Assembly: GCA_021787985.1 (NCBI GenBank)
Contig: JAJYLG010000004.1
Span: forward strand, 22,869-86,868
Direction of reading: 5' to 3'
DNA length: 64,000 nucleotides
Source of the DNA: Chloroflexota bacterium
Lineage (GTDB): Bacteria > Chloroflexota > Dehalococcoidia > DSGV01
The translations under genes and the position numbers were made by a program. The first letter of the stretch is position 1. Every line of letters starts with the position of its first letter. Positions 2,792-43,817 of the stretch are shown one piece after another. Below the pieces are notes generated by a model. It searched no databases. It had not been told where the DNA came from and saw only the letters and a program-made list of their open reading frames with translations.

Positions 2792-2823
2792 CCAGCCGCC
2801 CCGGCACGCCTGCCGCCGTGTGG

Positions 2824-3666
2824 TCACCCGAGCTCGAGCGGCAGCCGAGGGTGCGACCGTCCGTCTGGCCGGAAGCCCGCGAACACCCGAACGTCCGGGT
2901 AGCCCAGGCGTCTGAGGGCCAGAAAGGCGACCGCCGCGTGCGTCCAATGACTTCCGTACAGGACAACGGTCTTGTCCGGGGTCACGCCCCGCCCCAGGAA
3001 CATCGCCTGGGCCGTGGCCGCCGGTACCATGGCTCCGGTCGCCGCCAGCAGCTCACCCCAATACAGCCAAGCGGCCAGCGGCAGGTGGCCGGCCCGCCAT
3101 CCCGGCGCCGGCATGTCGAACCCGCGGAACTCGGGCTCCGTCCGCACGTCCAGCAGGACCGCGGACTCGAATCGGTCCAGGACGTCCATCACTTCATCGG
3201 CGGTCGCGACGACCGGCGTCCTCGACGCGGAGGTCGCGTCGCTGCCCGGGCCCGCGAGGTGATCGCCGCTCGCCGCCCTCGTCGCGGGTTCGTTTCGCTT
3301 CAACGCCGTGAAGCCGCCGTCCAGCACGCACACGTTCCGCACGCCCGCGGCGCACAACGCCAGGTAGCAGCCGGCGCTCACGGGGTCCGTCGTGTTTCCG
3401 CAGAGCACGATCCGACGGCCCTGCAGCGGCTGGAGCGCAGCGCCGAGCGCCTCCCACGCCCGCATGTCCACGCCAAGCCGCCCCGGCTGGCTCAGCGCGC
3501 GCCGCAGGAGCCGCCACGGCACGCCGTGCGCCGCCGCCGGCCGCATCAGCCTGCGCTGCTCCGGCGCTCGCACATCGACCAGGACCGCCTTCCCCTGCGC
3601 GGCCAGCTCGTGGCAGCGATCGGGGGCGATCAACGCGGACCGCGTGTCTTCAGCCGTCGTCTGCAC
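2824..3666 (-). CDS. Rhodanese-domain protein (two rhodanese-like domains)
   Basis: VLLDVRTEPEFRG...GH.PLA and VLVDVRAPEQ...CGNTTDPVS rhodanese motifs. Probable GTG start at 3666, overlapping the upstream gene's stop by 1 nt. The ORF-track start at 3738 would overlap the upstream gene by 72 nt. Confidence 0.65.
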   Translation of the reverse strand: MQTTAEDTRSALIAPDRCHELAAQGKAVLVDVRAPEQRRLMRPAAAHGVPWRLLRRALSQPGRLGVDMRAWEALGAALQPLQGRRIVLCGNTTDPVSAGCYLALCAAGVRNVCVLDGGFTALKRNEPATRAASGDHLAGPGSDATSASRTPVVATADEVMDVLDRFESAVLLDVRTEPEFRGFDMPAPGWRAGHLPLAAWLYWGELLAATGAMVPAATAQAMFLGRGVTPDKTVVLYGSHWTHAAVAFLALRRLGYPDVRVFAGFRPDGRSHPRLPLELG

Positions 3667-4517
3667 TAGCTCACCTCGAGCGGGAAGTCGTCTGGAAGCC
3701 TCGTCCACTCGTACATCGACCCGAGGTACACGCGACACGGGTAGCCGAGCTCTCGGAGGACGAGGTACGTGTTGCTGGCCCGGTGACTTCGCTGGCAGTA
3801 CACGATGGTCTCGCGCCCACGGGACACGCCGAGCTCGCCGAGCATCGCCTCGAGCTCCTGCCGCGGCCGTAGACGACGTTCGTCGGTCAGGAAATCAACC
3901 CAGTGGGTCCACGCAACCCCGGGCAGATGGCCGACGCGCGGGTTCCCCTGCAGACGCACCCAGCCGCGGAACTCCGCCTCGCTGCGGACGTCCAGCACCG
4001 TGACTCCCGCTCCGTCGACGAGCAAGCTGCGCAGCTCGGAGGCAGAGCAGACCATCTCCTGCCGCGGGGCAGGGCGCCACGCCGGTCCACGGGCGTGCGT
4101 CGCTTCGCCGCGACCGCGGGCCACCGGGCCGCCCGCCTCCACCCAATCAGGGAACCCTCCGTGCAGCACATACGCCCGCGGGTGTCCCAGGTAGCGGAGG
4201 ATGAAGAGCCCGCGCGGCGCGCGGTTGCTCAAACCCTTGTCGTACAGCACGACGGTGGTGTCCGGCGTGACGCCGACGGCGGCGTAGAGCGCCGCCCACT
4301 GCCGCCGCACCGCACCCAAGCTCCGCGGGTCCGTCCCGCCGATCAGGCGCAGGAAGGTCGGCAGGTGTACGGCGCCGGGGATGTGACCCGCCTCGTACTC
4401 GGCGCGAGGGCGCTCGTCGATGACCAGCGCCGGCTCGGCGGCGAGCCGCTGCCGCAGCCAGCCGGCGCTCACGAGCCAGGAATCGCGGCCGAGGTCATCC
4501 GAACTCGAGCTAGGCAT
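3666..4517 (-). CDS. sseA: 3-mercaptopyruvate/thiosulfate sulfurtransferase (SseA-like, tandem rhodanese)
   Basis: Internal start MPSSSSDDLGRDSWLVSAGWL at 4517. Two rhodanese domains with catalytic CQRSHRAS. The first 150 aa of the listed ORF are Arg/Gly-rich junk. Confidence 0.75.
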   Translation of the reverse strand: MPSSSSDDLGRDSWLVSAGWLRQRLAAEPALVIDERPRAEYEAGHIPGAVHLPTFLRLIGGTDPRSLGAVRRQWAALYAAVGVTPDTTVVLYDKGLSNRAPRGLFILRYLGHPRAYVLHGGFPDWVEAGGPVARGRGEATHARGPAWRPAPRQEMVCSASELRSLLVDGAGVTVLDVRSEAEFRGWVRLQGNPRVGHLPGVAWTHWVDFLTDERRLRPRQELEAMLGELGVSRGRETIVYCQRSHRASNTYLVLRELGYPCRVYLGSMYEWTRLPDDFPLEVS

Positions 4518-4531
4518 ACGCACCACCTTCG

Positions 4532-4948
4532 TCAGGTCTTGGGCGTCTCGGGAGGGCGAAACGAGAACGCGTGCTCGATCGTCACCGGTGACCTGAGCGT
4601 GTTGCTGATCGTGCAGCGCGTGCCGACCCGCTCCACCATCTCCATCTGGCGCTCGCTCAAGCCGCGGTGACGCACTTCCGCGGATACGCGGATCTCTCCA
4701 TAGCGTCGCGGGCTCGCGGTCGGCTCCGCTTCCAGGGACAGCGCCAGCGCTTCGATCGCCCCTTTGCCCAGGGCCTCGTGCTGCAGCAAGGTCCGCATCG
4801 TGCAGAGCGCGAGCGCCATGAGCAGCAGGTCTCCCGAGCGGGGCATCTCGGGGTCGCCCTCGCCACCGTCGGGGAGCTGCAACCGGAACCCGCCGGCATC
4901 GAAGCAGAACCCTTCCCCGTCTTTGTAGGACGCGACCAGCCTCGCCAC
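4532..4948 (-). CDS. OsmC/Ohr family peroxiredoxin-like protein
   Basis: LLLMALALCTMRTLLQHEALGKG and the C-terminal fold motif of OsmC. GTG start chosen at 4948; the ORF-track start at 5023 is probably too long. Confidence 0.65.
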   Translation of the reverse strand: MARLVASYKDGEGFCFDAGGFRLQLPDGGEGDPEMPRSGDLLLMALALCTMRTLLQHEALGKGAIEALALSLEAEPTASPRRYGEIRVSAEVRHRGLSERQMEMVERVGTRCTISNTLRSPVTIEHAFSFRPPETPKT

Positions 4949-5006
4949 CAGACCTGCCCCCTTTCGCCTGCGCCACGAATCCGACCGATTGCTTTGCGGC
5001 CCGCCG

Positions 5007-9148: not shown

Positions 9149-10336
9149 CTAGCTCTGGCGTCGCGGCAGCAGGGCGAGGCCCGCGCCCGCCAGCGCGAGC
9201 GCCGCGCCGGCGAGCAGAAGCAAGGCGCGCGACGAGCCGCCCCCAGCCGGCCCCGTGCCCGTCCCCGGCGCCTTGATGATCCCGAGCACCTCGGACACGC
9301 CGGTTGCCGTGCTCGTGGGGGTGGAGGTCGGCGTGGCGGTGGGCGTCGCCGTTGGCGTGAGCGTGGGCGTGCCCGTGGGGGTGGAGGTCGGCGTGGCGGT
9401 GGGCGTCGCCGTTGGCGTCAGCGTGGGCGTGCCCGTGGGGGTGGAGGTCGGCGTGGCGGTGGGCGTCTCCGTGGGCGTTGGCGTCAGCGTGGGCGTGCCC
9501 GTGGGGGTGGAGGTCGGCGTGGCAGTAGGCGTCGCCGTTGGCGTGAGCGTGGGCGTGCCGGTCGGTGTGCCGGTCGGTGTGCCCGTCGGCGTGGCGGTAG
9601 GCGTCTCCGTTGGTGTTGGCGTGAGCGTGGGCGTGCCGGTCGGTGTGCCCGTCGGCGTGGCGGTAGGAGTCTCCGTGGGCGTCGGCGTGAGCGTGGGCGT
9701 GCCGGTCGGTGTGCCCGTCGGCGTGGCGGTGGGCGTCTCCGTGGGCGTTGGCGTGAGCGTGGGCGTGCCGGTCGGTGTGCCCGTCGGCGTGGCGGTGGGC
9801 GTCTCCGTGGGCGTCGGCGTTGGCGTCGGAGTCGCGCAATCCACCCACACGTTGGCCTTCGCCTGGGTATGCAGCAACTCGTACTGGTTGTCTTGCGGCC
9901 CGTCCAGGTAGGCCGTGTTGAATGGGTCGTTGCAACCGGGCGTACCGGGAGCCTCGTTCACGGTGGCGGTCACGGTGAGCTCGCGAGTCTCGCCGGGGCC
10001 GAGGTCGAAGGTCTTGAAGCAGAACCACAGGCCGCTGCCCAACGGCTCGCACCACGAGCTGCCGCCCGGGGCGCTTCCGTTGTCATCCGAGGCAGTCACC
10101 GTGTACGGCGGGGACGAAGGGATATCGGCAACGGTCAGGCCGCCGGCGTCCGCGCCGCCCGTGTTCGACACGACGATGGTGAACGTCACCGAGCCACCGT
10201 TGCTGACGTAGATGGGGCTCGCCTTCTTGGTGATGTCCAGGACTGCTCCCGAAGGGTCCGCTGAGAGAAAGGGCGCGCGCGCGCTCAGGACGCCGGTGCT
10301 CAGCCACACCGTCGCGAGCGTGAGCACACTGAGCAT
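9149..10336 (-). CDS. Secreted DUF11 (conserved repeat domain) protein with a long Thr-Pro repeat linker and a C-terminal AP-G-TG-T-GP + TM + RR anchor
   Basis: Signal peptide [24 protein letters not shown]11-like segment [24 protein letters not shown]. About 180 aa of TPTxTPTGTP repeats. C-terminus [43 protein letters not shown]. Confidence 0.7.
9290..9830. repeat. Tandem repeat, about 8 units of 60-66 bp, encoding [22 protein letters not shown]-type linker units
   Basis: Directly visible periodicity in the DNA (ggcgtgagcgtgggcgtgcc...). The antisense frame gives the PVGV-repeat ORF 9255..9911. Confidence 0.85.
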
Positions 10337-10927: not shown

Positions 10928-12313
10928 ATGCAAAGTTCGGCGCCCGATCGCGTCTGGCAGGCAATCCTGCACCATCTGCGAACGCTGGTCACCGGCCCGG
11001 TCTACCAGACCTGGTTCGATGGCACGGTGGGCATCGCCATCGAGGGCAACCTGCTCACCGTCAACACGCCCAACGACTTCGTCACCGAGTACCTGCGCTC
11101 GCGCCTCGCGGGCGTCGTCGGGCGCGCGGTCGCGGATGTGGCAGGCGCGGACGTGCGCGTCTCCTACCGCTCTGGGACGGTGATCTCCGAGCCGCCGCCG
11201 CCCCCCCTCACCCCACCGCCGGGAGCACCGTCGGCGGCTTCCGCGCCCCTTTTCTCTCACCCGGTGCGGGCGCCGAAGCCGATGCTGCGCCCCGAGTACA
11301 CTTTCGATCGCCTCGTCGTCGGGCGCTGCAACCAGGTCGCGCACTCCGCCGCCGTCGCCGTCGCCGCCGACCCCGGCCGGGTCTATAATCCGCTCTTCTT
11401 CTTCGGCCCCACCGGTGTGGGCAAGAGCCACCTGCTGACCGCGATCGGTCACGAAACCCTCGACCTCGGCCAGCACGTCGCCTTCGTCACCTGCGACCAG
11501 TTCATCAACGAGTTCGTCACCGCGCTGCGCGAGCGCCGCGCCGACGAGTTCCGCCAGCGCTATCGCGCCGCAGACGTCTTCCTGCTCGACGACGTGCACC
11601 AGCTCCAGGGCAAGGAGCAGACGATCGAGGAGTTCTTCAACCTGTTCAACGACCTCCACGCCGCCGGCACCCAGATCGTGCTCACCAGCGACCGCGCGCC
11701 GCGCAGCCTGGGGCTGATCGAGCCGCGCCTGCGCAGCCGCTTCGAGTGGGGGCTGCTCGCCGACGTGTCCGTCCCCGACCTCGAGACCCGCCAGGCGATT
11801 GTCCGGCGCAAGGCCGAAGAGCGGCAGATCGACCTCCCGGTGGAGGTGCTCGACTTCATCGCCCAGCGGTCGGCGGAAAGCGTGCGCGAGCTGGAAGGCA
11901 ACCTGAACCGTGTCATCATGTTCCTCAAGGTCCAGAACAAGCCCACCAGCGTGGCGCTCGCCGCCGAGGCGCTGCGTAGCATAGACGCGCGTCCTGCCGG
12001 GCGCCCGCCGGTTCCCGAGGCGATCGTCGAGGCGGTCTGCGCGTTCTACGGCGTCCGCGAGGCGGAGCTGACGGGCAAGGGCCGCACCGCCCGCGTCGTC
12101 CGCGCCCGCCACGTGGCGATGTTCCTGATGCACCACGACGCCGGCCGCGCGCTCACCGAGATCGGACGCGCCTTGGGCGGCCGCGACCACTCCACGGTCC
12201 TGCACGCGTCCACGAAGATCACCGCGCAGCTCGAGCGCGATGCCGACCTCTGCCGCGAGGTGGAGGAGCTGCGTGCCGTGCTGCAGCGGCGGGAGCGCCG
12301 CGCGGCGGGCTAG
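10928..12313 (+). CDS. dnaA: Chromosomal replication initiator protein DnaA
   Basis: Start MQSSAPDRVWQAILHHLRTL. Walker A GPTGVGKSHLL. AAA+ sensor motifs. C-terminal DNA-binding domain HVAMFLMH...GGRDHSTVLHA. Confidence 0.9.
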   Translation: MQSSAPDRVWQAILHHLRTLVTGPVYQTWFDGTVGIAIEGNLLTVNTPNDFVTEYLRSRLAGVVGRAVADVAGADVRVSYRSGTVISEPPPPPLTPPPGAPSAASAPLFSHPVRAPKPMLRPEYTFDRLVVGRCNQVAHSAAVAVAADPGRVYNPLFFFGPTGVGKSHLLTAIGHETLDLGQHVAFVTCDQFINEFVTALRERRADEFRQRYRAADVFLLDDVHQLQGKEQTIEEFFNLFNDLHAAGTQIVLTSDRAPRSLGLIEPRLRSRFEWGLLADVSVPDLETRQAIVRRKAEERQIDLPVEVLDFIAQRSAESVRELEGNLNRVIMFLKVQNKPTSVALAAEALRSIDARPAGRPPVPEAIVEAVCAFYGVREAELTGKGRTARVVRARHVAMFLMHHDAGRALTEIGRALGGRDHSTVLHASTKITAQLERDADLCREVEELRAVLQRRERRAAG

Positions 12314-18000: not shown

Positions 18001-18095
18001 ACACGGCGTCAAGACCGGCCGAACGCGCGCCCGGACGTGTCTAACCCTCCGCGAGCGTGGCACTCTAGAAACACAGGGAGCAGGAGGTGCGGGTG

Positions 18096-20012
18096 ATGGC
18101 CCAGCGATACGCCCGACTTACCCGGCCGCTTGTCCGCGAGGGCGGAGCGCTGCGCACGGCAACCTGGGATGAGGCGCTCGACCGGGCAGCGGCCGGATTC
18201 CGGGACGCCGTCGCGCGAAGCGGCCCGCGGAGCTTCGGCCTGTTTAGCTGCTCGAAGGCCACCAACGAGATCAACTTCATCGCCCAGAAGTTCGCGCGTG
18301 CCGTCATCGGCAGCAACAACATCGATAGCTGCAATCGCACCTGACACGCGCCGAGCGTCGTCGGTCTGGCGACGGTATTCGGCGCGGGCGGCGGCACCAG
18401 CTCCTACCGTGAGGTCGAGGAGACCGACCTGATCGTGCTCTGGGGCTCGAACGCTCGCGAGACCCACCCGATCTTCTTCCACCACGTGCTCCGCGGATTG
18501 CGCAACGGGGCCCGCTTGTACGCGGTGGACCCGCGCCGCACCACCTCCGCACAGTGGGCGCACGCCTGGCTGGGGCTCCAGGTCGGCTCCGACATCGCCC
18601 TGGCCAACGCCATCGGCCGCGAGATCATCGCCGCGGGCCTCGCCAACGAGACGTTCATCGCCCGCGCTACCGCCGGTTTCGACGAGTACCGCCGCTGCGT
18701 CGACCGCTACACCCTCGACTACGCCCAGCGCGAGACGGGCGTGCCGGCGGAGACGATCCGCGAGCTGGCGCACGCCTACGCCCGCGCCGACCGGGCGATG
18801 ATCTGCTGGACGCTGGGCGTGACGGAGCACCACAACGCGGTGGACACCGTGCTGGCGATCATCGACCTGGCGTTGCTGACCGGCCACGTCGGCCGCTACG
18901 GCTCCGGACTCAACCCGTTGCGGGGACAGAACAACGTCCAGGGCGGCGGTGATATGGGCGCGCTGCCCGATCGGCTGCCGGGCTTCCAGCACGTCGAGGA
19001 CGACGCCGCGCGCGCGAAGTTCGAGCGCGCCTGGGGCGTCCGCATCCCGCCGAAGCGGGGCTGGCACCTCACCGGCATGTTCGAGGCGATGGAGCGGGGC
19101 GATCTCACCGCGCTCTACGTCATCGGCGAGAACCCCGCTCAGTCCGAAGCCGACGCCGGCCGGGCCGTGCGGCTCCTGGGCGGTCTCGGGCACCTGGTCG
19201 TGCAGGACATCTTCCTGACGCCCACCGCCGAGCTGGCGCACGTCGTGCTCCCGGCGGCCGCGAGCTGGTGCGAATGCGAGGGCACCGTCACCAGCAGCGA
19301 GCGTCGCGTGCAGCGCGTGCGCAAGGCGCTGGAGCCGCCGGGCGAGGCCCGCGACGACATCACGATCATCCGCGACCTGGCCCGCCGCTTCGGCCACAAC
19401 TGGGGCTCGCCCAGCGCCGAGGACGTCTGGAACGAGCTGCGCAGCCTGAGCCCGATCCACGCCGGCATGAGCTACCGCCGCCTCGAGGCACTGGGCGGGC
19501 TCCAGTGGCCCTGCCACGACGAGACCCACCCTGGTGAGCAGTTCCTCCACGGCCGCCTCTGGGAGGAGCCGCTGCGCGGCCCGCGGACGCCCTTCCACGC
19601 TGTCCTGCACGAGCCGCCCGTGGACCCGGTCGACGACGAGTTCCCGATCCGCCTCACCACCGGCAGGCAGCTCGATTCGTTCAACACCGGCGTCCAGAGC
19701 GGGCTCTACCGCTCGCCGTTGCGCCACGGAGAGACGCTCCAGATCTCGCCGGACGACGGCCGCCGCTACGGCGCCCTCGACGGCGAGCGCGTGCGCGTGC
19801 GCTCACGCCGCGGCGCGGTGGAAGTGTCGGTCCACTACGAAGGCACCCTGCGCCCCGGCCTCGCGTTCATGACGCTTCACTTCCCGGACGAGGTGGCGAC
19901 GAACCTGCTGACGATCGACGCCGCCGACCCGAGGTCCGGCACGGCCGAGTTCAAGGCCACTGCCATCCGCATCGAGAAGATCGCGACGTCGACGGACGGC
20001 GCGGAGGGCTGA
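18096..20012 (+). CDS. fdhA: Formate dehydrogenase catalytic (molybdopterin bis-MGD) subunit, selenocysteine-containing. In-frame TGA at 18342-18344 is read as Sec. The N-terminal Fe-S domains are encoded separately (see 21823..22779)
   Basis: ATG at 18096 with AGGAGG 8 nt upstream. ...FIAQKFARAVIGSNNIDSCNRT-TGA-HAPSVVGL aligns with the E. coli FdhF ...CARV-U-HGPSVAGL. Downstream motif GQNNVQGGGDMGALP contains the conserved Arg. ORFs 18087..18344 and 18435..20012 are the same frame joined through the UGA. Confidence 0.8.
18345..18388 (+). promoter_or_regulatory. SECIS-like recoding hairpin immediately 3' of the UGA codon
   Basis: Outer stem cgcgccga (18347-18354) pairs with tcggcgcg (18379-18386). 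Inner stem cgtcg pairs with cgacg. Apical loop ucGGUCugg contains the GGUC element expected of bacterial SECIS loops. Confidence 0.5.
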
Positions 20013-21826
20013 TGGACATCCACCTGTCGGCAACCGAGGCCAGCCCGATCGAGCGCGCCGCCGTGGACGCGGCACTCGGACCTCGGGACACCCGCCCACC
20101 GCCGCGCGACCGGCTCCTGCCCGCGCTGTGGGCCGTTCAATCACGCGTCGGCCACATCGGCGAGGGCGCGCTCAGCTACATCTGCGAGCGGCTCGACGTC
20201 CCGCCGGCCGAGGCGTACTCCGTCGCCAGCTTCTACGCCCTCTTCTCGCTCGACCCGTCTGCCGGGCAGCCGCTGGTCGCGCACGTCTGCGACGACATCG
20301 CCTGCCGCGCGGCCGGTGCCGAGCAGATCTGCGCCCGGCTCGAGACGGCGCTCGGCCCGCCCGGCACTCCGACCAGCGACGGCCGGGCCACCTGGCGGCG
20401 CGCGTCCTGCCTCGGGCAGTGTGACCGGGCGCCGGCCGCGCTGGTCATGGCCGCCGGTTCGCAGCCTATCGAGCGTGCCCTCGCGCCGGTGGACCCGCCA
20501 GCGCTGCAGACGGCGTTGCGCGACGGCGCGCTTTCCCCCGCGACGGACGCGGAGACAGCCACGCTTCCACGGATCGGCGGCGCCAGCCTGCGATTGCTGC
20601 GCCGCGTCGGCCGGATCGACCCGACCAGCCTGGACGACTATCGCGCCCACGGCGGCTACGAGGCGCTACGACGCGCCGTGCGGCTCGGACCCGACGGCGT
20701 CATCCGCGAGGTCGTCGACGCCAAGCTCGTCGGTCGCGGCGGCGCGGCCTTCCCCACCGGGCGCAAGTGGGAAGCGGTCGCGCACGCGGCCGCGCGACCG
20801 CACTACCTGGTCTGCAACGCCGACGAGTCCGAGCCTGGCATGTTCAAGGACCGCGTGCTCATGGAGCACGACCCGTTCGCCATCATCGAGGCGATGACGA
20901 TCGCCGGCTACGCCACCGGCTGCGAGCAAGGCTACGTCTACGTCCGTGGCGAGTACCCGCTGGCGTTCTCCCGGCTGCGGAACGCGGTCGCGCAGGCGCA
21001 GGCGAAAGGACTGCTGGGCGACGACGTGCTGGGACGGGGTTTCCGCTTCGACATCGAGCCGCGGCGCGGCGCGGGCGCCTACGTCTGCGGCGAGGAGACC
21101 GCGCTGTTCAGCTCGATCGAGGGCTACCGCGGCGAGCCGCGCAACCGGCCGCCGTTCCCCACCCAGTCCGGGCTCTTCGGAAGACCAACGGCGGTCAACA
21201 ACGTCGAGACGCTGGTCAACGTGCTCGAGATCCTGCGCGAGGGTGGGCCGGCGTTCGCGGCCATCGGCACTCGCGACTCCACCGGGACGAAGCTGTTCTG
21301 TGTCTCCGGGCGGGTCGACCGCCCCGGCGTGTACGAGGTGCCGTTCGGCACCACGCTGCGCGCGCTGCTCGACCTGGCGGGCGGGCTGCCCGCGGGGCGG
21401 ACGTTGCGGGCCGTGCTGCTCGGCGGCGCTGCGGGTAGCGTGATCCCGCCGGAGCAGGTCGACATGCCGCTCACGTTCGAGGCCGCCCGGGCGCGCGGCG
21501 TCGCGCTCGGCTCCGGGGCCGTCATCGTCTTCGACGACACGGTCGACCTACGGCGCATCTTGCTGCGCGTCGCGGCCTTCTTCCGCGATGAGTCGTGCGG
21601 CCAGTGCGTGCCGTGCCGTATCGGCACCGTCCGCCAGGAGGAGCTGCTCGAGCGACTGGTCTCCGGTCGCCCGCACAGCTCGGTGCGGGACGAGCTGGCC
21701 CTGCTGGCGGATATCGGCCGGGCGATGCGCGACGCTTCGATCTGCGGTCTCGGCCAGACGGCGAGCACCGCCGTCGAGTCGGCGGTGCGCGAGCTGAAGC
21801 TCTTTGCGGACGGAGGTGACACGTGA
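20012..21826 (+). CDS. fdsGB: NAD-dependent formate dehydrogenase gamma-beta fusion (NuoE-like 2Fe-2S thioredoxin-fold domain fused to NuoF-like FMN/NADH/4Fe-4S domain)
   Basis: N-terminal NuoE-like segment LPALWAVQSRVGHIGEGALSYICERL...HVCDDIACR. NuoF-like GRGGAAFPTGRKWE, YLVCNADESEPG and ESCGQCVPCRIG. Start overlaps the fdhA stop (TGATG). Confidence 0.85.
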   Translation: MDIHLSATEASPIERAAVDAALGPRDTRPPPRDRLLPALWAVQSRVGHIGEGALSYICERLDVPPAEAYSVASFYALFSLDPSAGQPLVAHVCDDIACRAAGAEQICARLETALGPPGTPTSDGRATWRRASCLGQCDRAPAALVMAAGSQPIERALAPVDPPALQTALRDGALSPATDAETATLPRIGGASLRLLRRVGRIDPTSLDDYRAHGGYEALRRAVRLGPDGVIREVVDAKLVGRGGAAFPTGRKWEAVAHAAARPHYLVCNADESEPGMFKDRVLMEHDPFAIIEAMTIAGYATGCEQGYVYVRGEYPLAFSRLRNAVAQAQAKGLLGDDVLGRGFRFDIEPRRGAGAYVCGEETALFSSIEGYRGEPRNRPPFPTQSGLFGRPTAVNNVETLVNVLEILREGGPAFAAIGTRDSTGTKLFCVSGRVDRPGVYEVPFGTTLRALLDLAGGLPAGRTLRAVLLGGAAGSVIPPEQVDMPLTFEAARARGVALGSGAVIVFDDTVDLRRILLRVAAFFRDESCGQCVPCRIGTVRQEELLERLVSGRPHSSVRDELALLADIGRAMRDASICGLGQTASTAVESAVRELKLFADGGDT

Positions 21827-22779: not shown

Positions 22780-22893
22780 GTCGCCGCCGCGAAGACCGCC
22801 CCGTGCGGGGTATACTGCGCGGGGCGCCTCGTCCCGTGACCCCACGGCTCGGACGGTGATACGCGTGCAATCCCCGGCTCCGCGAGACCGCCG

Positions 22894-23394
22894 GTGAACT
22901 GGGTCGACGTGGTCGTCGTCGCCACGTTGCTCTGGTTTACGCTCGACGGCTGGCGCACCGGGATCATCCGCCAGGTGACCACCATTCTGGCGGTCATCCT
23001 GGGGGCGGTTCTCGCCGGCAGGCTCTACGGCCGCCTGGCGGATGACGTGCACATCTTCGTCGGCAGCCGCGTTGCCTCGGACGTGATCGCGTTCCTCGCG
23101 ATCTTCTTCGCCATCATCGGCTTCGGCCAGCTTGCCGCCTGGTACCTGCGCCGTCTGGCCTCGGTGCTGCTCCTCGGCCCCGCGGACAACATCCTGGGCG
23201 CGTTGTTCGGCTTCGCCAAGGGCTTTCTGCTCGTCGAGGCGCTACTGCTGCTGTTCATCACCTTTCAGGTGGGCGGCGTGACGCGCACCATCAACCACGC
23301 GCTGCTCGCGCCGCTCTTCGTGCAGGGCTTCCCCATCCTGCTGCACGTGCTACCGCGCGAGTTCCACCGTGCCGCGGACATGTTCGGCCGTTGA
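22894..23394 (+). CDS. CvpA family membrane protein
   Basis: 166 aa, 4 TM. N-terminal MNWVDVVVVATLLWFTLDGWRTG is typical of colicin V production protein family members. Confidence 0.65.
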   Translation: MNWVDVVVVATLLWFTLDGWRTGIIRQVTTILAVILGAVLAGRLYGRLADDVHIFVGSRVASDVIAFLAIFFAIIGFGQLAAWYLRRLASVLLLGPADNILGALFGFAKGFLLVEALLLLFITFQVGGVTRTINHALLAPLFVQGFPILLHVLPREFHRAADMFGR

Positions 23395-23458
23395 GCCGCA
23401 CGATTCGTTGCCGGCCCGCACACCGCTCTGCTACCGTGAAGCCAGCGAGGCAGGGCTC

Positions 23459-23986
23459 ATGGGGCCATCACCGGTACTCGTCCTGAACCAGAACTACGAG
23501 CCGCTGAACGTGTGTGGCCCGCACCGCGCCTTCGTCCTCCTGGACCGCGGGAAGGCCGAGATCCTCGAGGAGTCTGACCTCGTCTTGCGCAGTCCCTCCT
23601 ACGAGTTCCGGCTCCCCAGCATCATCCGTATGGTCTACCTCATCCGCCGCCCGCGGCCGCAGATGCGGCTGACGCGACGCGACATCTTCCAGCGCGACCG
23701 CTACACCTGCCAGTACTGCGGCCGTCAGGGTCGCGACCTCACCATCGATCACGTGGTCCCGCGGCACCGCGGCGGGAGGCACGCCTGGGAGAACCTGGTT
23801 AGTGCCTGCCGACCGTGCAACCACCGCAAGGCCGGGCGCACACCGAGCGAGGCGCACATGCGCCTGCTGCGCGAACCCCACCGGCCAACGGCCCCCAGCT
23901 ACTATCTTTTCTACGACTACTGCAATCATCGCGAGGGATGGCGTAAGTTCATCCCAGGCTGGGAGGAGATGATCGGGGCGATGTAG
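23459..23986 (+). CDS. HNH endonuclease
   Basis: Start MGPSPVLVLNQNYEP. HNH motif region CQYCGRQGRDLTIDHVVPRHRGGRHAWENLVSACRPCNHRK. Confidence 0.75.
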   Translation: MGPSPVLVLNQNYEPLNVCGPHRAFVLLDRGKAEILEESDLVLRSPSYEFRLPSIIRMVYLIRRPRPQMRLTRRDIFQRDRYTCQYCGRQGRDLTIDHVVPRHRGGRHAWENLVSACRPCNHRKAGRTPSEAHMRLLREPHRPTAPSYYLFYDYCNHREGWRKFIPGWEEMIGAM

Positions 23987-29390: not shown

Positions 29391-30290
29391 ATGGAGGGCT
29401 GGATGCCGCGACCGTTCCCCGTCTATCGCGTGGGCGATCTCGAGGTCACCGTCATCTCGGACGGCACCTTCTGGCTGGACGCGGGGTCCGTCTTCGGCCC
29501 GGTTCCCCGCACCGTGTGGGAGCCGGTGGTGGGGGACGCGCTGAACGCGCTCAACCAGATCCCCCTATCGCTCAACTGCCTGGTGGTGCGCGGCTCCGCG
29601 GCGGCGCGCGTCGTGCTCATCGAGACCGGGATGGGGAACAAGCTGGACGAGCGCGGCCGCAGGTTCTATCCCGGCGACTACGGCTACCTGGTGCGCGAGC
29701 TGGCGGAGCTGGGCATCTTCCCCGACGAGGTGGACATCGTCATCAACACGCACCTGCACCAGGACCACTGCGGCTGGAACACGACCCGGCTGCACGGCGC
29801 GCTCGTGCCCACCTTCCCCAACGCGCGCTACTACGTGCAGCGCAAGGAGCTGGACCTGATCGAGCACCCGAACGAGCGCACGCGCGCCACCTACGTGGCG
29901 GACAACATCCAGCCGCTGATGGAGACCAAGCAGGTGACGTTCCTGGACGACGAGTTCCAGGTGACGCCCGAGGTGCGGATCGTGCCGACGCCCGGACATA
30001 CGCCGGGGCACGCCTCGGTGGTGCTGGCCAGCGGCCACGAGACGGGGGTCTATATCGGCGACATCGGGCAGCACCGGGCGCAGGTCGAGCGGCTGGCGTG
30101 GATGTCGGGCTTCGACCTGATGCCGCTCGTCTCGCTCGAGACGCGCCGTCGCCTGCTGCGCGAGGCCGTCGCGAGGAACGAGCTGCTGTTCTGCGCGCAT
30201 AACCCGTATCCCGGCGTGGGCCGGCTGCGCGAGGACGAGTCCGGGCAGCGCACGCTGGTGGACGAGCCGCCCGCGGAGACGCTGCCGTGA
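29391..30290 (+). CDS. MBL-fold metallo-hydrolase
   Basis: HLHQDHCGWN metal-binding motif and TPGHTPGH. Immediately upstream of gcvT. Confidence 0.75.
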   Translation: MEGWMPRPFPVYRVGDLEVTVISDGTFWLDAGSVFGPVPRTVWEPVVGDALNALNQIPLSLNCLVVRGSAAARVVLIETGMGNKLDERGRRFYPGDYGYLVRELAELGIFPDEVDIVINTHLHQDHCGWNTTRLHGALVPTFPNARYYVQRKELDLIEHPNERTRATYVADNIQPLMETKQVTFLDDEFQVTPEVRIVPTPGHTPGHASVVLASGHETGVYIGDIGQHRAQVERLAWMSGFDLMPLVSLETRRRLLREAVARNELLFCAHNPYPGVGRLREDESGQRTLVDEPPAETLP

Positions 30291-30318
30291 GGCGGCGCCG
30301 TTGCCCGGGGCGCCTCAC

Positions 30319-31431
30319 GTGAGCTCGGCCACACCGCGTCAGACCGCCCTCAACCCGCGGCACCGCGCGGCCGGCGCGCGGATGGTGCCGTTCGCCGGCT
30401 GGGAGATGCCGCTGCAGTACCGCGGCATCGTGGAGGAGCACCTCGCGGTCCGCCGCCGGGTCGGCGTGTTCGACGTCTCGCACATGGCGCGTTTCTTCCT
30501 CGCCGGGGCGGACGCGGGCGCGGTCATCCGCCGGACGGTCACGTACGACGTGCTGGCAATGGAGCCGGAGACCGGCCACTACAGCGTCGCGTGTGATGAC
30601 GCGGGCGGCATCCTGGATGACCCCTACGTCTACCGGCTCGGCCCGCAGCGCTGGATGGTGGTGGGCAACGCCGCGCGTCGCGAGGTCGACCTGGAGGCGC
30701 TGCGGGCGGCAGTTCGCTCCGGAGACGACGTGGAGCTGGACGATCGGACGGAAGCGACGGCAATGCTGGCGGTCCAAGGGCCGCAAGCGGCCTCCCTCCT
30801 CGGCGCCCTGCTGGCCCCCGAGATCGTCGGGCGCGTGGAGCCACACCACACCACCGAGGTGGCGCTGGTGGGTTACAAGGCGCTGGTCAGCCGCACCGGC
30901 TACACGGGCGAGGACGGCTTCGAGCTGGTGCTGGCGGCGGCGGTAGCGGCCGAGGTCTGGGACCGCCTGCTGTCCGGCGGCGCTGAGCCCTGCGGACTGG
31001 GTGCGCGTGACACGCTGCGGCTCGAGGCGGCGCTGGCGCTGTATGGCAACGACATCGACGTGACGACCGACCCGTTTGAGGCGGGCCTTGGTTGGGTGGT
31101 CTCGCTCGAAGATGCAGGGGACTTTCGCGGCCGGGCCGCGCTCGTCGGCAGGAAGGCGGCCGGCCGAACGCGAGCGCTCGCCTGCATCCGCGCCGCCGAA
31201 CGCGGGCCGGTGTTCCGCCACGGCTGCGCCGTGCTGGCGGGCGGCGCGCGGGTCGGCGGGCTGACCAGCGGCGGTTACTCGCCTGTGCTGGAGACGTCGA
31301 TCGGGATGGGCTACCTGCCGGTCGAGCAGGCGAAGTCGGGGACGCGCGTGGAGGTGGAGGTGCGCGGACGACGCGAGCGGGCGGAGGTGGTGCGGCGGCC
31401 GTTTTACCGGCGGGCGGCCGGGTCATCCTGA
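30319..31431 (+). CDS. gcvT: Glycine cleavage system T protein (aminomethyltransferase)
   Basis: GARMVPFAGWEMPLQY and VGVFDVSHM. GTG at 30319 preferred over the TTG at 30301. Confidence 0.85.
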   Translation: MSSATPRQTALNPRHRAAGARMVPFAGWEMPLQYRGIVEEHLAVRRRVGVFDVSHMARFFLAGADAGAVIRRTVTYDVLAMEPETGHYSVACDDAGGILDDPYVYRLGPQRWMVVGNAARREVDLEALRAAVRSGDDVELDDRTEATAMLAVQGPQAASLLGALLAPEIVGRVEPHHTTEVALVGYKALVSRTGYTGEDGFELVLAAAVAAEVWDRLLSGGAEPCGLGARDTLRLEAALALYGNDIDVTTDPFEAGLGWVVSLEDAGDFRGRAALVGRKAAGRTRALACIRAAERGPVFRHGCAVLAGGARVGGLTSGGYSPVLETSIGMGYLPVEQAKSGTRVEVEVRGRRERAEVVRRPFYRRAAGSS

Positions 31432-31480
31432 GGCGAGCGGGCCGTATACTCGGAGCACAACGTATCTGAGGGGGCGAGCC

Positions 31481-31861
31481 GTGCAATTCCCCGCCGAGCT
31501 GCGATACTCCCGCGAGCACGAGTGGGTCCGAGTGGAAGACGGAGCGGCGGTGGTCGGGATCACCGACTTCGCCCAGGACCAGCTCGGCGACGTGGTGTTC
31601 GTCAGCCTGCCGGCCGTCGGGAGCAAGGTGGCCGCGCTCGAGAAGATGGGCGAGATCGAGTCGGTGAAATCGGTCTCGGAGCTCTACTCGCCGGTGTCGG
31701 GGACCGTGGTCGAGATCAACCAGGCCGCGGTTGACAGCCCCGAAACGATCAACCGTGACGCGTACGGCGAGGGCTGGCTGCTGCGCGTCGCGATGGATGG
31801 CGGCCTGCCGGATGGCCTGCTCTCCGCCGACGAGTATCGCGCCGTGGTGGGCGCCGAGTAG
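31481..31861 (+). CDS. gcvH: Glycine cleavage system H protein
   Basis: 126 aa. Lipoyl-lysine motif EKMGEIESVKSVSELYSPVSG. Confidence 0.9.
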   Translation: MQFPAELRYSREHEWVRVEDGAAVVGITDFAQDQLGDVVFVSLPAVGSKVAALEKMGEIESVKSVSELYSPVSGTVVEINQAAVDSPETINRDAYGEGWLLRVAMDGGLPDGLLSADEYRAVVGAE

Positions 31862-31880
31862 CCTCGGACTGGAGTTGACC

Positions 31881-33188
31881 GTGCGCAACCCCTACGTGCC
31901 GCACGTCGCGGACGAGCGGCGGGCGATGTGCGACGTGATCGGCGTCGCGTCTGCTGACGATCTGTTCGCCGATCTGCCGGCCCATCTGCGCGACCCACGG
32001 ATCGAGCTCCCGCCGCCGATGGCCGAGGCCGAGCTGCTGCGCCACTACCGCGCGCTCGCGGCGCGCACGGCCGATGCGCTCGCCGTGCCGTGCTTCCTTG
32101 GCGGACCGCTGCAGCGCCACGCCGTGCCGGCGGTGACGGCGTACGTTCTCGGCCGCGGCGAGTTCTCGACCGCGTACACCCCGTATCAGCCGGAGATCGC
32201 GCAGGGCACGCTCCAGGCGGCGTTCGAGTTCCAGTCCGCCGTCGCCGAGCTGACCGGGATGGACGTGGCCAACGCCGGCATGTATGACGGCCCGTCGGCG
32301 CTGGCCGAGGCCTGTCTGATGGCCGCGGCCGTCACCGGGCGTCGTCGCGTCGTGCTCGATGAGGGCGTCGACCCCGTCGCGGCCGACGTGGTGCGCACGT
32401 ACGCTTCCGGACACCAGCTCCAGGTCGAGACGGCCCGCGCGGCCGACGCTGACCTGGCGGGCGCCGCTGCGCTGGCGGTGCAGTACCCGGACGTGCTGGG
32501 CCAGGTCCGCCCGCTGGCGCCGCTCGCCGCACGGGCGCACGCCGCCGGCGCGCTGGTGTGCGCCAGCGCCGACCCGGTGGCGCTGGCGCTGCTGCAGCCT
32601 CCCGGCGAGGCCGGCGCCGACATCGTGGTCGGCGAGGGTGGGCCACTGGCGGCGCCGCCGACCTTCGGCGGGCCGAACCTGGGGCTGTTCGCCTGTCGCA
32701 AGGAGCTGGTCCGCCAGATGCCGGGCCGCATCGTCGGCGCCACCGTCGACGCGCGAGGCCGGCGCGGCTTCGTGCTGACGTTGCAGACGCGCGAGCAGCA
32801 CATCCGCCGCGAGCGGGCGACCTCGAACATCTGCACGGCCCAGCAGCTTCTGGCGACGGGGTTCGCGGTCACGCTGGCGCTGCTCGGCCCGGCAGGGCTG
32901 CGCGAGCTGGCGGAGACCTGCTACCAGCGAGCGCACGCGCTCGCCGCCCGCATCGCCACGCTGCCGGGATGGTCGGTGGCCAGCGAGCCGCCGTTCTTCC
33001 ATGAGTTCGCGGTCGCCGGCCCGTTGCCCCCGCGGGCAGTTAACGCGAGGCTGTGGGAGCACGGGATTGTCGGTGGGCGGCCGCTGGTCTGGCGCGGGAC
33101 GGAAGTGCTCGTCCTGTCCGTCACCGAGCTCAATCCGCCCGATCAGCTCGACGCGCTGGTCGCGGCGCTGACGGAGCCGCGGTCGTGA
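31881..33188 (+). CDS. gcvPA: Glycine dehydrogenase (decarboxylating) subunit 1
   Basis: GTG at 31881 with GGAG upstream. N-terminal NPYVPH...RRAMCDVIG. The ORF-track start at 31731 lies inside gcvH. Confidence 0.85.
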   Translation: MRNPYVPHVADERRAMCDVIGVASADDLFADLPAHLRDPRIELPPPMAEAELLRHYRALAARTADALAVPCFLGGPLQRHAVPAVTAYVLGRGEFSTAYTPYQPEIAQGTLQAAFEFQSAVAELTGMDVANAGMYDGPSALAEACLMAAAVTGRRRVVLDEGVDPVAADVVRTYASGHQLQVETARAADADLAGAAALAVQYPDVLGQVRPLAPLAARAHAAGALVCASADPVALALLQPPGEAGADIVVGEGGPLAAPPTFGGPNLGLFACRKELVRQMPGRIVGATVDARGRRGFVLTLQTREQHIRRERATSNICTAQQLLATGFAVTLALLGPAGLRELAETCYQRAHALAARIATLPGWSVASEPPFFHEFAVAGPLPPRAVNARLWEHGIVGGRPLVWRGTEVLVLSVTELNPPDQLDALVAALTEPRS

Positions 33189-34657
33189 ACCGGCGTGACG
33201 ACCGACTGACGTTCGAGCGCTCCGTACCCGGACGGCGTGGGCTGGGTGTGCCGGCGCCCGGCGTGCCAGAGCAGGAGCCGCTGCCGGGCGAGCTGCGGCG
33301 AGCCGCACCGCCCGGTCTGCCGGAGCTGAGCCAAGCGGAGGTGGTGCGCTACTACGTCGGTCTCGGACGGCTGAACTACAGCATCGAGACGGGCATGTAT
33401 CCGCTCGGCTCGTGCACGATGAAGTACAACCCGAAGGCGAACGACGAGGTGGCGGGGCTGTCGGGCTTCGCCGGCGCCCATCCGCTGCAGCCGGACGAGC
33501 TCAGCCAGGGCGTGCTGGAGGCGCTCTGGGAGCTGCAAGAGGCGCTCAAGGCGCTCACCGGCATGGCGGAGGCGACGCTCTGCCCGGCGGCCGGCGCGCA
33601 GGGAGAGCTCACCGGCATGCTGATGGTGCGGGCGTGGCACCGCGGGCGCGGCGAGGACGAGCGGCGGCGCAAGGTGCTGGTGCCGGACTCCGCGCACGGC
33701 ACGAACCCGGCCACGGCGGCGATGTGCGGCTATCAGGTGGTGGCCGTCCCCACGGACCCGGCCGGCAACATGGACATGGACGGGCTGCGCGCGGCCCTGG
33801 GCGACGACGTCGCCGGCCTGATGCTGACGCTGCCGAACACCCTGGGGCTATGGGAGCAGCACATCCTCGAGATCGCCGACGCGGTCCACGGGGCTGGCGC
33901 GCTGCTCTATGGCGACGGGGCGAACTTCAACGCCATCGCCGGACATGTCCGCCCGGGCGACCTGGGCTTCGATGCGATGCACGTCAACGTGCATAAGACG
34001 TTCAGCACGCCGCACGGCGGTGGCGGCCCGGGCGCTGGCCCCGTCTGCTGCGCGGCGGCGCTGGCGCCGTTCCTGCCCGATCCGCACATCGAACGCCGCG
34101 ACGGTCGCCTGGTGCGCGTGCGGCCCGAGCGGAGCATCGGCCGGGTCGGTCCCGGGCCGGGCAGCGTTGGCGTGCTGCTGCGCGCGGCGGCGTACCTGCG
34201 GACGCTGGGCCTCGATGGCATCCGCGAGATGAGCGCCGCCGCCGTCCTCAACGCGAACTACCTGCGTGTGCGGCTCGCTGCGACGTACGATCAGCCGTAC
34301 GACCGCCCCTGCATGCACGAGGCCGTCTTTTCGGCGCGCGCACTGAGGAGACAGGGTGTCCGCGCGCTCGACGTGGCCAAGCGCCTGATCGACTATGGGT
34401 TCCACCCGCCGACGATGTACTTCCCGCTGATCGTGGAAGAGGCGCTGATGATCGAGCCGACCGAGTCGGAGACGAAGGAGTCGCTCGATGCCTTCGCCAA
34501 GGCGATGCATGCCATCGCCGACGAAGCGGCGACCGAGCCGGAGCTGCTGCACGACGCGCCGCACGACGCCCCGGTGGGGCGACTTGATGAGGCGCTGGCC
34601 GCGCGGCGGCCGGTCCTGCGCTGGACGCCGGAGCAGTCGGTGGTGCCAGCGGGCTGA
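33185..34657 (+). CDS. gcvPB: Glycine dehydrogenase (decarboxylating) subunit 2
   Basis: GTG start overlaps the gcvPA stop (GTGA). Motifs GSCTMKYNPK and HVNVHKTFSTPHGGGGPG (PLP lysine). Confidence 0.85.
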   Translation: MNRRDDRLTFERSVPGRRGLGVPAPGVPEQEPLPGELRRAAPPGLPELSQAEVVRYYVGLGRLNYSIETGMYPLGSCTMKYNPKANDEVAGLSGFAGAHPLQPDELSQGVLEALWELQEALKALTGMAEATLCPAAGAQGELTGMLMVRAWHRGRGEDERRRKVLVPDSAHGTNPATAAMCGYQVVAVPTDPAGNMDMDGLRAALGDDVAGLMLTLPNTLGLWEQHILEIADAVHGAGALLYGDGANFNAIAGHVRPGDLGFDAMHVNVHKTFSTPHGGGGPGAGPVCCAAALAPFLPDPHIERRDGRLVRVRPERSIGRVGPGPGSVGVLLRAAAYLRTLGLDGIREMSAAAVLNANYLRVRLAATYDQPYDRPCMHEAVFSARALRRQGVRALDVAKRLIDYGFHPPTMYFPLIVEEALMIEPTESETKESLDAFAKAMHAIADEAATEPELLHDAPHDAPVGRLDEALAARRPVLRWTPEQSVVPAG

Positions 34658-35456: not shown

Positions 35457-36023
35457 TCAGGCCTGGGCCGGCCGGTCGTCAGACGGAGACGAGGCGAAGC
35501 CGCGCCTGGCCGCGTCCTTGAAGCGCGCTGACTCGTGCTGCAGGACCGCTGCCACGTCGCGCGGCCGGGCCACTCCGCGGAAGGCGAAGTGTCGCTGCTC
35601 GGCGGCGGTCTGGCACTCGAGGTCGCCGAAGTTGAAGAGCGTGCCAAGCACGCCGCTGATGCGCGTCGTCTGATCCTCGATCTCGTCCAGGTCCGCCTCG
35701 GACATGTGGTAGTTGAACGGCGAGGTGCGCACCAGGTCGATCACCCGCCGGTCGGTGATCACCCACAGGTCGTTGACGTAGCGATACCAGAGCAGCCAGA
35801 TGCGGAACGCCAGCCACAGCCCCCAAGCGATCGAGATGGCCAGGGCGATCTTCCAGCCGATTCCGGCCGCCCAACCGGCCAGCCCCAGCAGATACCAGAG
35901 CAACGCCGGCGGCGCGACGAGCAGGATGAGGTCAAGGAGGAGATGAGGAAGGAAGTAGAGCCAGTGCCGACGTGTCAGCAGCACGATGCGCTCATTCGCC
36001 TGCAGGCTGAAGGGAAGGCTCAC
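35457..36023 (-). CDS. Membrane protein with bacterial PH (bPH_2/YdbS-like) domain
   Basis: Two N-terminal TM helices followed by WVITDRRVIDL, similar in architecture to 27448..28371. Confidence 0.6.
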   Translation of the reverse strand: MSLPFSLQANERIVLLTRRHWLYFLPHLLLDLILLVAPPALLWYLLGLAGWAAGIGWKIALAISIAWGLWLAFRIWLLWYRYVNDLWVITDRRVIDLVRTSPFNYHMSEADLDEIEDQTTRISGVLGTLFNFGDLECQTAAEQRHFAFRGVARPRDVAAVLQHESARFKDAARRGFASSPSDDRPAQA

Positions 36024-36234
36024 ATGTGCCTCCGCGTCGTATTCGCGGTCAGTATACGCGGCAGGCCGATGGTCGGGCGGCGGTCGGCCGCGGGCGAGCT
36101 ACCTCAGACCTCGTACACCTTCGGCGCTTCGTCGCCGCCGCGCTTGATGACCTTGACGGCGGTCTTCTCCCTCCTGGCGCGGGGCAAAGGCCGGCTGCGG
36201 GTGGGGTGGAGGGACGACCAGGGTGGCCTCGTCG

Positions 36235-42558: not shown

Positions 42559-43706
42559 GCGCGCTCCAGGGCGAGCGGACGCAGCGTGCCCGCGTGCACG
42601 TGCCAGGCGGCGGCCAGCGGCACGCCGGCGAAGTGCGCCGGGTCGGGCGAGGTGAGCAGCGCTTGGCTGACGCCGGCAACGTGCGACAGCGCGGCAAGGC
42701 GCCGCTCCGGATCGAACTCGGAGAGAATGTCGTCGAGCAAGAGGACCGGCGGTTCGTCCAAGCGTTCCTCCATCACCGCGGCCTCGGCCAGCCGCAGCGC
42801 CAGCGCGCTCGTGCGCTGCTGCGCCCGCGAACCAAAGCTCGCGAGCGGCCGCCCGTTCAGGGCGAAGGATAGATCGTCGCGATGCGGCCCGTGGAGCGTC
42901 ATGCCGGCGGCCAGCTCGCGACGCCGCTCGTGGCGGAACGCCGCGCGCCACGAGGACGCGTCGGTGGGCGGCGCCACGCCGCTCGGGGCCGCGGGGCGGT
43001 AGTCGATCGTCAGCGACTCTCCGGGCGCCAGGGCGGCGTGGGCCGCCGCCGCGTGCAGCGCAAGGGCGGGCGTGACGGCCGCGCGGGCTGTGCTGATCGC
43101 GGCCGCGCCGGCGGCGAGCAGATCGTCCCAATAGTCGAGCTGCGCCTCGTCGCCGCCCTGCTCGCGCAGCGTACGCAAGAGCTGATTGCGCTGACGCAGA
43201 ACGCGGGCGTAGCGGTTGAGCTCGGTCGCGTGCCCGTGGACCGTCTGGGCGAGGAGCAGGTCGAAGAAGCGCCGGCGCGCGGCGGGCGGGCCGGTGACCA
43301 GCTCCACGTCCAGCGTCGAGAAGAAGACGGCCGCGAGCAGCCCCACGACTTCCGTCGCCCGCCGCGGCACGCCGTTCACACGGATGCGCCGCGCGGCCTG
43401 GCTGCTGACGGCGGGCCAGCCGCGCGGCGCGACGATGACCTCGACGGTGAACGTGTCCCCGTGCCGCACGAAGGTGCATGCCGCCCGGGCGGCCGGTGGT
43501 CCCTCCGCTTCGGCGCCTTCGCGGACCAGCTCCAGGTCGGACACGGTGCGCAGGGAGCGTGTGGTGGCGCAGAGGTAGATCGCCTCGAGCAGGTTGGTCT
43601 TGCCCTGGGCGTTCGGGCCGGCGAAGAGGACCAGTCCCGGTTGCAGGTCGAGCTCCAACCGACGGATGTTGCGGAAGTCGGTCAGGCTCAGGTGTGTCAG
43701 GTACAC
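42555..43706 (-). CDS. recF: DNA replication and repair protein RecF
   Basis: MYLTHLSLTDFRNIRRLEL, Walker A GPNAQGKTNLLEA, and ABC signature and D-loop at the C-terminus. Confidence 0.9.
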   Translation of the reverse strand: MYLTHLSLTDFRNIRRLELDLQPGLVLFAGPNAQGKTNLLEAIYLCATTRSLRTVSDLELVREGAEAEGPPAARAACTFVRHGDTFTVEVIVAPRGWPAVSSQAARRIRVNGVPRRATEVVGLLAAVFFSTLDVELVTGPPAARRRFFDLLLAQTVHGHATELNRYARVLRQRNQLLRTLREQGGDEAQLDYWDDLLAAGAAAISTARAAVTPALALHAAAAHAALAPGESLTIDYRPAAPSGVAPPTDASSWRAAFRHERRRELAAGMTLHGPHRDDLSFALNGRPLASFGSRAQQRTSALALRLAEAAVMEERLDEPPVLLLDDILSEFDPERRLAALSHVAGVSQALLTSPDPAHFAGVPLAAAWHVHAGTLRPLALERA

Positions 43707-43817
43707 GGGGGAAGCTCCGCCGTTGGCCGCCCGTCCATGGACTCATTGTGCAGGCGGCGTGCCGTGCGGGCGACGTAGCACGGGGCGCCGACGCACGCAC
43801 GCGGTAGCATTCAGGAG

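Follow-up and report, generated by a model that had tools for sequence, protein, structure and literature searches.

An in-frame UGA, very probably a selenocysteine codon, in the predicted catalytic-subunit gene of a soluble formate dehydrogenase from an uncultured Chloroflexota bacterium

The locus described here raises the question whether a formate dehydrogenase (FDH) gene that carries an in-frame TGA is broken, wrongly assembled, or read through with selenocysteine (Sec). It lies on contig JAJYLG010000004.1 of the Chloroflexota assembly GCA_021787985.1, of which we analysed a stretch of 64,000 nucleotides (hereafter the window; contig positions 22,869 to 86,868 of the forward strand; 70.9% GC), and all positions given for it are counted from its first nucleotide. 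An earlier interpretation, made without database searches (the sequence-only reading), had noted that the molybdopterin subunit of the enzyme appears as two open reading frames (ORFs) in the same frame, separated by TGA at 18342-18344, and had proposed that this TGA encodes Sec. The ORF list (18087..18344, 85 amino acids (aa), and 18435..20012, 525 aa, both on the plus strand and in identical frames) and our translation of 18096..20012 (+) agree with the first point, as there are 638 sense codons with this TGA as the sole internal stop, and the starts of homologues fall on the Met equivalent to ATG 18096 (MAQR.../MARY...). As to the second, sequence comparison makes it highly probable that the whole is one uninterrupted gene, here called fdhA, whose product would be the catalytic subunit of a molybdenum- or tungsten-dependent (Mo/W) FDH, soluble and NAD(H)-linked, with UGA 18342 decoded as Sec; the codon itself is very probably a genuine Sec codon.

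The codon comparison with orthologues bears directly on this proposal. In a protein search the closest matches (76-80% identity) are entries of 540-547 aa that start just past the TGA position, and the full-length matches (634-650 aa; Saccharopolyspora, Streptomyces, Kutzneria and Thermopolyspora), at 65-67% identity, read ...SCNRTCHAPSV... where the peptide here reads SNNIDSCNRT before the TGA and HAPSVVGL after it. At the level of codons we compared the best 80 loci from a scan with one genome per species, the closest of which is 76% identical. Of these, 64 have TGA as the homologous codon and the other 16 have TGC or TGT (Cys), while the sequence on both sides of it is conserved in all 80 loci, fully so downstream. 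The TGA-bearing loci come from metagenome-assembled genomes (MAGs) of Chloroflexota, Actinomycetota, Acidobacteriota, Gemmatimonadota, Planctomycetota, Dormiibacterota, Eremiobacterota, Methylomirabilota, Bacillota and Desulfobacterota, and also from the cultured Actinomycetospora lemnae; those with Cys include Streptomyces, Nonomuraea, Amycolatopsis, Nocardiopsis, Sphaerisporangium and Methanothrix. With TGA in so many loci and with conserved flanks, neither a nonsense mutation nor a sequencing error can explain the codon. One relative, on a farmland metagenome contig (ENA ERZ1761205; gene 170-2107; protein P0001; our locus L090), has CGA (Arg) at this position and, despite this, retains intact the stem and GGUCU loop of the hairpin described below; its CGA is due either to an error of sequencing (T to C) or to an inactivating mutation that arose very recently.

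The composition of the gene and its treatment by gene callers point in the same direction. Third codon positions of fdhA have a GC content (GC3) of 0.84 before the TGA and of 0.95 after it, and no in-frame TGA in the window other than TGA 18342 is flanked on both sides by coding-type composition. Since TGA serves as the ordinary stop of 25 of the 34 confident genes in the window, fdhA itself included, a reassignment of the codon is excluded. The sequence-only reading had also warned that such genes are easily annotated as fragments, which is what has happened here: in the gene calls deposited in ENA for a contig that is about 99.5% identical (ERZ27233565 k141_1518207, 73.6 kb), fdhA is cut into pieces of 82 and 525 aa. 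As the split falls at the same place, the same stop codon is implied in that assembly.

That the product belongs to the FDHs, as had been assumed, is supported by family models as well as by structures. The Pfam family PF00384 (Molybdopterin) matches residues 7-430 of the translation (E 1.2e-66) and thus runs across the TGA, and PF01568 (Molydop_binding) matches residues 519-622 (E 4e-23). Among the NCBIfam models TIGR01591 (Fdh-alpha) fits best, with 636.2 bits over profile positions 50-672; this is just below the equivalog cut-off of 666.25 bits for fdhA alone, and a rough sum with the part matched by fdhC, the third gene of the operon (56.1 bits), comes to 692. The closest solved structures are FDHs of the FdhF/FdsA type (FdhF, HDCR-FdhF and FdsA; E 1e-140 to 1e-122), the best being 7qv7_S, 7bkb_D, 1aa6_A and 6tg9_A (E 1e-140 to 1e-124), with FDH-N/O chains giving weak matches (E about 1e-37). 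In a pairwise alignment with Escherichia coli FdhF (sequence from NC_000913.3; 38% identity over 634 aligned positions), Sec140, His141 and Arg333 of FdhF fall on residue 83, i.e. the TGA, and on His84 and Arg276 of fdhA, in line with the resemblance to the FdhF active-site context claimed earlier. On this basis, fdhA is predicted to be the catalytic subunit of a Mo/W-bis-pyranopterin guanine dinucleotide (bis-PGD) FDH of the FdhF/FdsA type, and its activity on formate is likewise a prediction.

A bacterial Sec codon is expected to be followed by a Sec insertion sequence (SECIS), and the sequence-only reading had placed a hairpin with a GGUC-containing loop directly after the TGA. The minimum free energy (MFE) fold puts the stems where they had been claimed. 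Counting from the U of UGA as nucleotide 1, the hairpin spans nucleotides 6-45. We aligned the 54 nucleotides from the TGA onwards in 54 distinct Sec-type sequences, which can be done without gaps. All six upper-stem pairs 16-21/27-32 can form in 54 of 54 sequences, with changes that are compensatory and lie at synonymous sites: pair 18-30 is CG in 45, GC in 8 and UA in 1, pair 20-28 is UG in 29, CG in 21 and UA in 4, and pair 21-27 is CG in 52, AU in 1 and GC in 1. Over the whole structure 82.9% of the cells are paired, against 78.0 ± 0.6% in shuffled alignments and 34-54% in slid registers, and the covariation score of 0.175 compares with 0.099 ± 0.008 in shuffles, none of 500 of which reach it, and with 0.045-0.091 in slid registers. 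Support for the lower stem is weaker (73% of cells paired across the 54 orthologues); its pair 9-42 nevertheless covaries (UA 14, GU 8, GC 4, AU 3, UG 3, CG 1).

These features are tied to the UGA codon. The full 6-bp upper stem is present in 56/56 Sec-type and 0/13 Cys-type sequences, and the GGUCU loop in 53/56 and 1/13, respectively. The same counts, 53/56 against 1/13, apply to GGT as the codon of the Gly in the loop. As GGT accounts for no more than 45 of the 651 Gly codons in the window genes, the loop codon is constrained independently of the protein. Among 12 further, more distant loci outside the alignment, the nine with TGA have GGUCU in 9/9 and the six pairs in 8/9, whereas the three with Cys have the full stem in 0/3. 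The element also sits at the same offset as that of E. coli fdhF: GGUCUG occupies nucleotides 22-27 in both genes and encodes the same Gly-Leu, and the spacer of 11-12 nucleotides before the upper stem agrees with what we take to be the minimal E. coli SECIS. With covariation confined to the TGA-bearing genes, the earlier view that loop and position fit a bacterial SECIS is strengthened, and the hairpin is, by comparison of sequences, a covariation-supported SECIS specific to UGA-bearing genes, to which SelB would bind.

A covariance model built from the element matches the window at the SECIS site alone (78.5 bits, the site being part of the training set; the next match in the window has 14.6 bits) and gives the E. 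coli fdhF site 13 bits. We also tried this model as a discriminator between Sec and Cys genes and set it aside as weaker than the pair counts, since the Cys orthologues still score 28-49 bits because their coding sequence is homologous.

Several results weigh against Sec decoding at this codon. The fold energy of the hairpin is not significant (MFE -29.4 against -25.4 ± 2.95 kcal/mol for shuffles, z = -1.36, with 23 of 200 shuffles as stable); in DNA of 71% GC the stability of a hairpin is by itself no better than chance, and the evidence therefore rests on covariation instead. An Rfam scan found no family at its gathering threshold, and the sub-threshold match of SECIS_3 (RF01989), which lies right over the SECIS site (18339-18395), is not significant (15.9 bits against 63, E = 1.2). 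Another point is that U17 forms a pair in the predicted fold (with A31, which is G31 in 11 of the 54 sequences), as opposed to the bulged U17 that we take to be a feature of the E. coli fdhF upper stem. Furthermore, ARAGORN, Rfam, tblastn with E. coli SelA, SelB and SelD, and Pfam searches of about 40 ORFs found no selA, selB, selD or tRNA-Sec in the 64-kb window, in which ARAGORN found no tRNA whatever, and there are no sel genes in the roughly 4 kb past its left end, a flank that holds DJ-1, luciferase-like and AMP-binding genes.

In relatives the picture differs, as the Sec machinery can be found beside the orthologous operon. A tRNA-Sec lies within 10 kb of fdhA in four loci (L010, L029, L036 and L072), in L029 about 130 nucleotides upstream of the gene; selD, selA and selB together adjoin the operon in L010, L036 and L072, and selD does so in L002 and L047 (coordinates of the sel loci: L010, 4381-8197; L036, 5446-9178 and 15074-15166; L072, 1393-4802; L029, 9775-9868; L002, 94-981; L047, 3250-4140). 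The relatives concerned are MAGs, Chloroflexia, Thermoleophilaceae and Geodermatophilaceae among them, and their arrangement fits the known linkage between fdhA and sel genes (PMC1794560). For the genome studied here we infer that sel genes are located elsewhere.

The missing sel genes could be taken to mean that fdhA is a relic, i.e. that gene and SECIS are intact in a lineage that has lost the Sec machinery, so that the product is an 82-residue fragment. Losses of the Sec trait in single lineages are documented (PMC1794560), as are mycobacterial FDH pseudogenes (PMC13449736), which together with the empty window and left flank lends this idea some weight. It is, however, at odds with a gene that shows no decay, having neither frameshifts nor extra stops and a GC3 of 0.95 past the TGA, with a SECIS that is perfect down to the rare GGT codon, and with two downstream subunit genes that are intact and translationally coupled. 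In most Sec-using bacteria, moreover, sel genes are located elsewhere in the genome than near the selenoprotein gene. As such, we regard a relic as very unlikely.

Another possibility is that the TGA stems from a Cys codon by nonsense mutation or by an error of sequencing or assembly, which would make the gene a pseudogene or an artefact. TGA is one base away from both TGC and TGT, Cys-type orthologues do exist, and the CGA in L090 demonstrates that point differences occur at this codon. Yet 64 related genomes have TGA here, the ENA calls on the almost identical contig split the gene at the same place, and a Sec-specific hairpin with its loop codons is present which the Cys orthologues lack, all of which renders such an origin highly improbable. 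One could finally imagine that the two ORFs given by gene callers encode two polypeptides of a subunit that is split by nature, the enzyme being split elsewhere already with its Fe4S4 domain on a separate gene, or that TGA stands for a standard amino acid in this organism. Between the TGA and position 18435, where a start first becomes possible, lie 30 codons that are highly conserved, the catalytic His84 among them; no start codon follows the TGA; and TGA stops most genes around it, including fdhA, while orthologues have Cys at the position rather than Trp or Gly. Neither variant is, in our opinion, seriously credible.

How Sec would be inserted and used can be modelled on the E. coli fdhF paradigm, from which SelB binding, the actual insertion of Sec, the metal and the electron acceptor are carried over here by analogy. 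As a ribosome arrives at the UGA, the stretch of mRNA directly 3' of this codon would fold such that the upper stem of 6-7 bp displays the GGUCU loop 18 nucleotides past the UGA. SelB with GTP and Sec-tRNA(Sec) would bind this loop and deliver Sec, so that termination by release factor 2 is avoided. Sec83 would then serve as metal ligand of the bis-PGD cofactor, beside His84 and Arg276. Electrons from formate would pass via the 4Fe-4S and 2Fe-2S clusters of fdhC to the flavin mononucleotide (FMN) of the NuoE/F fusion encoded by fdhB and on to NAD+, and the reverse reaction may also run.

The operon to which fdhA belongs is compact (Table 1). The stop codon of fdhA overlaps the start of fdhB (TGATG), and fdhB and fdhC overlap by 4 nucleotides (GTGA), so that the order is catalytic subunit, NuoE/F fusion and Fe-S subunit, with 638, 604 and 318 aa. 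Compared with FdhF, the fdhA product begins at the equivalent of residue 60 and has no N-terminal Molybdop_Fe4S4 domain on the same polypeptide. This domain (PF04879) instead forms the C-terminus of fdhC, beside a 2Fe-2S domain and 4Fe-4S motifs of the ferredoxin type; residues 259-307 of fdhC match positions 1-49 of TIGR01591 (56.1 bits). With these positions on fdhC and positions 50-672 on fdhA, a canonical FdsA-like polypeptide has been cut between the Fe4S4 and the catalytic domain, and the gene order permuted. Gene order and Fe4S4 split are common to all close relatives with enough downstream sequence, Sec and Cys types alike, whereas many relatives of 40-45% identity have the Fe-S part immediately upstream of the catalytic domain, with which it is contiguous. 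Judged by these domain assignments the cut-and-permuted architecture is real; it is also already implicit in the gene sizes of a published FDH, discussed below. The displacement of the Fe4S4 domain to the third gene had gone unremarked in the sequence-only reading.

Table 1. Coordinates of the fdhA operon and its recoding elements in the window.
Feature	Position	Strand	Basis or remarks
Ribosome-binding site, AGGAGG (putative function)	18082..18087	+	8 nt 5' of ATG 18096
fdhA, predicted Sec-containing Mo/W-bis-PGD FDH catalytic subunit	18096..20012	+	638 residues, U83; without N-terminal 4Fe-4S domain
In-frame UGA, very probably read as Sec	18342..18344	+	Orthologue codon comparison
SECIS hairpin, whole	18347..18386	+	Lower stem 18347-18355/18378-18386 (9 bp), 3-nt bulge 18375-18377, upper stem-loop; MFE fold
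SECIS core, presumed SelB-binding element	18356..18374	+	7-bp stem 18356-18362/18368-18374, GGUCU loop 18363-18367
fdhB, NuoE-NuoF fusion (2Fe-2S, FMN/NAD(H) site, 4Fe-4S), predicted diaphorase subunit	20012..21826	+	PF01257, PF01512, PF10531, PF10589; NuoF and NuoE/FDH-gamma NCBIfam models
fdhC, NuoG-N-terminal-like Fe-S subunit, 318 aa	21823..22779	+	PF13510, Fer4 families, PF04879 residues 255-306

Among known systems, E. coli FdhF shares with fdhA the Sec-His motif, the conserved Arg and a hairpin right after the UGA. It differs in being a single polypeptide that has its own N-terminal 4Fe-4S domain and docks on hydrogenase 3, whereas here that domain is found on fdhC and the partners resemble NuoE, NuoF and NuoG. 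The hairpins differ in that the upper stem of E. coli fdhF carries a loop of 4 nucleotides next to its presumed U17 bulge, while that of fdhA has a loop of 5 nucleotides with U17 paired in the predicted fold.

The NAD+-dependent FDHs of the FdsABG type (Rhodobacter capsulatus, 6TGA/6TG9; Cupriavidus necator; Methylobacterium FDH1) have a homologous catalytic domain (E about 1e-124 to 6tg9_A), and NuoE-, NuoF- and NuoG-like electron-transfer modules occur in both systems. In FdsA, however, a single chain of about 958 aa comprises the Fe-S region resembling NuoG, the Fe4S4 domain and the catalytic domain, and here this chain is cut between the latter two. Further unlike FdsABG, the genes follow the order catalytic, NuoEF and Fe-S, with a fusion of NuoE and NuoF, and the predicted active-site ligand is Sec in place of what we take to be Cys in FdsA.

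FDH3 of Actinomycetospora chiangmaiensis DSM 45062 has been described with FdhA3 (640 aa, with Sec), FdhB3 (614 aa) and FdhC3 (316 aa) and was called cytoplasmic and NAD+-dependent, with a SECIS predicted by bSECISearch; all three subunits were present in the proteome, and formate removal was selenium-dependent (PMC7176365). We liken the present system to FDH3 by the gene sizes (638/604/318 against 640/614/316) and by the Sec-containing alpha subunit with a predicted SECIS after the UGA. The orthologue of A. lemnae (L039), at 65-67% identity, agrees with the present locus in TGA, hairpin and gene order. In contrast to that of FDH3, the host in our case is uncultured; its DNA has 71% GC. A mycobacterial Sec-FDH from a likewise high-GC host is also annotated as two ORFs, broken at the UGA, and has its SECIS immediately after this codon, but it belongs to another class, namely the FDH-O/N type of about 1064 aa that is related to FdoG/FdnG (PMC13449736). 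In general, FdhA is the commonest bacterial selenoprotein, found in 67 of 75 Sec-using genomes (PMC1794560).

Directly after the operon follow a gene for a CvpA-family membrane protein and an HNH endonuclease gene (22894-23986, with an overlap of about 25 nucleotides), which are not found beside the operon in related loci; a comparison of the flanking genes with those of the 80 related loci showed no synteny. About 8 kb downstream of the operon lie glycine-cleavage genes (30121-34657; GcvT, then two GcvP subunits). One could speculate that this widespread clade of cut-and-permuted FdsA enzymes, represented here in a deep-branching, high-GC, uncultured Chloroflexota-like host near a glycine-cleavage cluster, might run in the CO2-reducing direction within a C1 assimilation of the reductive-glycine type, an idea that we put forward as speculation and consider unlikely.

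A few other features of the window deserve mention. A dnaA gene (10928-12313) has no adjacent dnaN, and a gene for an ATPase of the RecF/SMC_N type (42555-43742) lies 30 kb off on the opposite strand. The DnaA protein is 43-48% identical to its best named relatives, all of them MAGs of Dehalococcoidia or other Chloroflexota; with identity this low, the organism represents a deep-branching uncultured lineage. Just upstream of dnaA, a minus-strand ORF without a Pfam match contains a 66-bp tandem repeat (9308-9820; about 7.9 copies, 89% matches). The window exceeds the ENA assembly, elsewhere about 99.5% identical, by 192 bp across the array, which suggests a difference in repeat copy number. Three ORFs of 429, 304 and 213 aa at 45570-47698 (-) and 35457-36098 (-) have coding-type GC3 and match no Pfam family at E <= 0.001. 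At about 2800-5000 (-), the ENA gene calls (L085) give two rhodanese-domain genes in tandem and one gene of the OsmC family, which adjoin a gene for a family-5 solute-binding protein.

Overall, the operon adds an example from an uncultured lineage to a known family of soluble three-subunit FDHs; its novelty is low and it holds no new biology. It does bear on how such enzymes are recorded, as the closest database relatives are mostly stored as fragments of 540-547 aa and fdhA itself is split in public gene calls. The signature of a UGA, a spacer of 11-12 nucleotides, a stem of 6-7 bp and a GGUCU loop provides a simple, testable rule by which such genes could be rescued automatically. If the UGA is indeed decoded as Sec, the organism requires selenium. 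Because of the annotation as fragments, both selenium dependence and the capacity to oxidise formate or reduce CO2 are under-called in many uncultured lineages of soil and freshwater.

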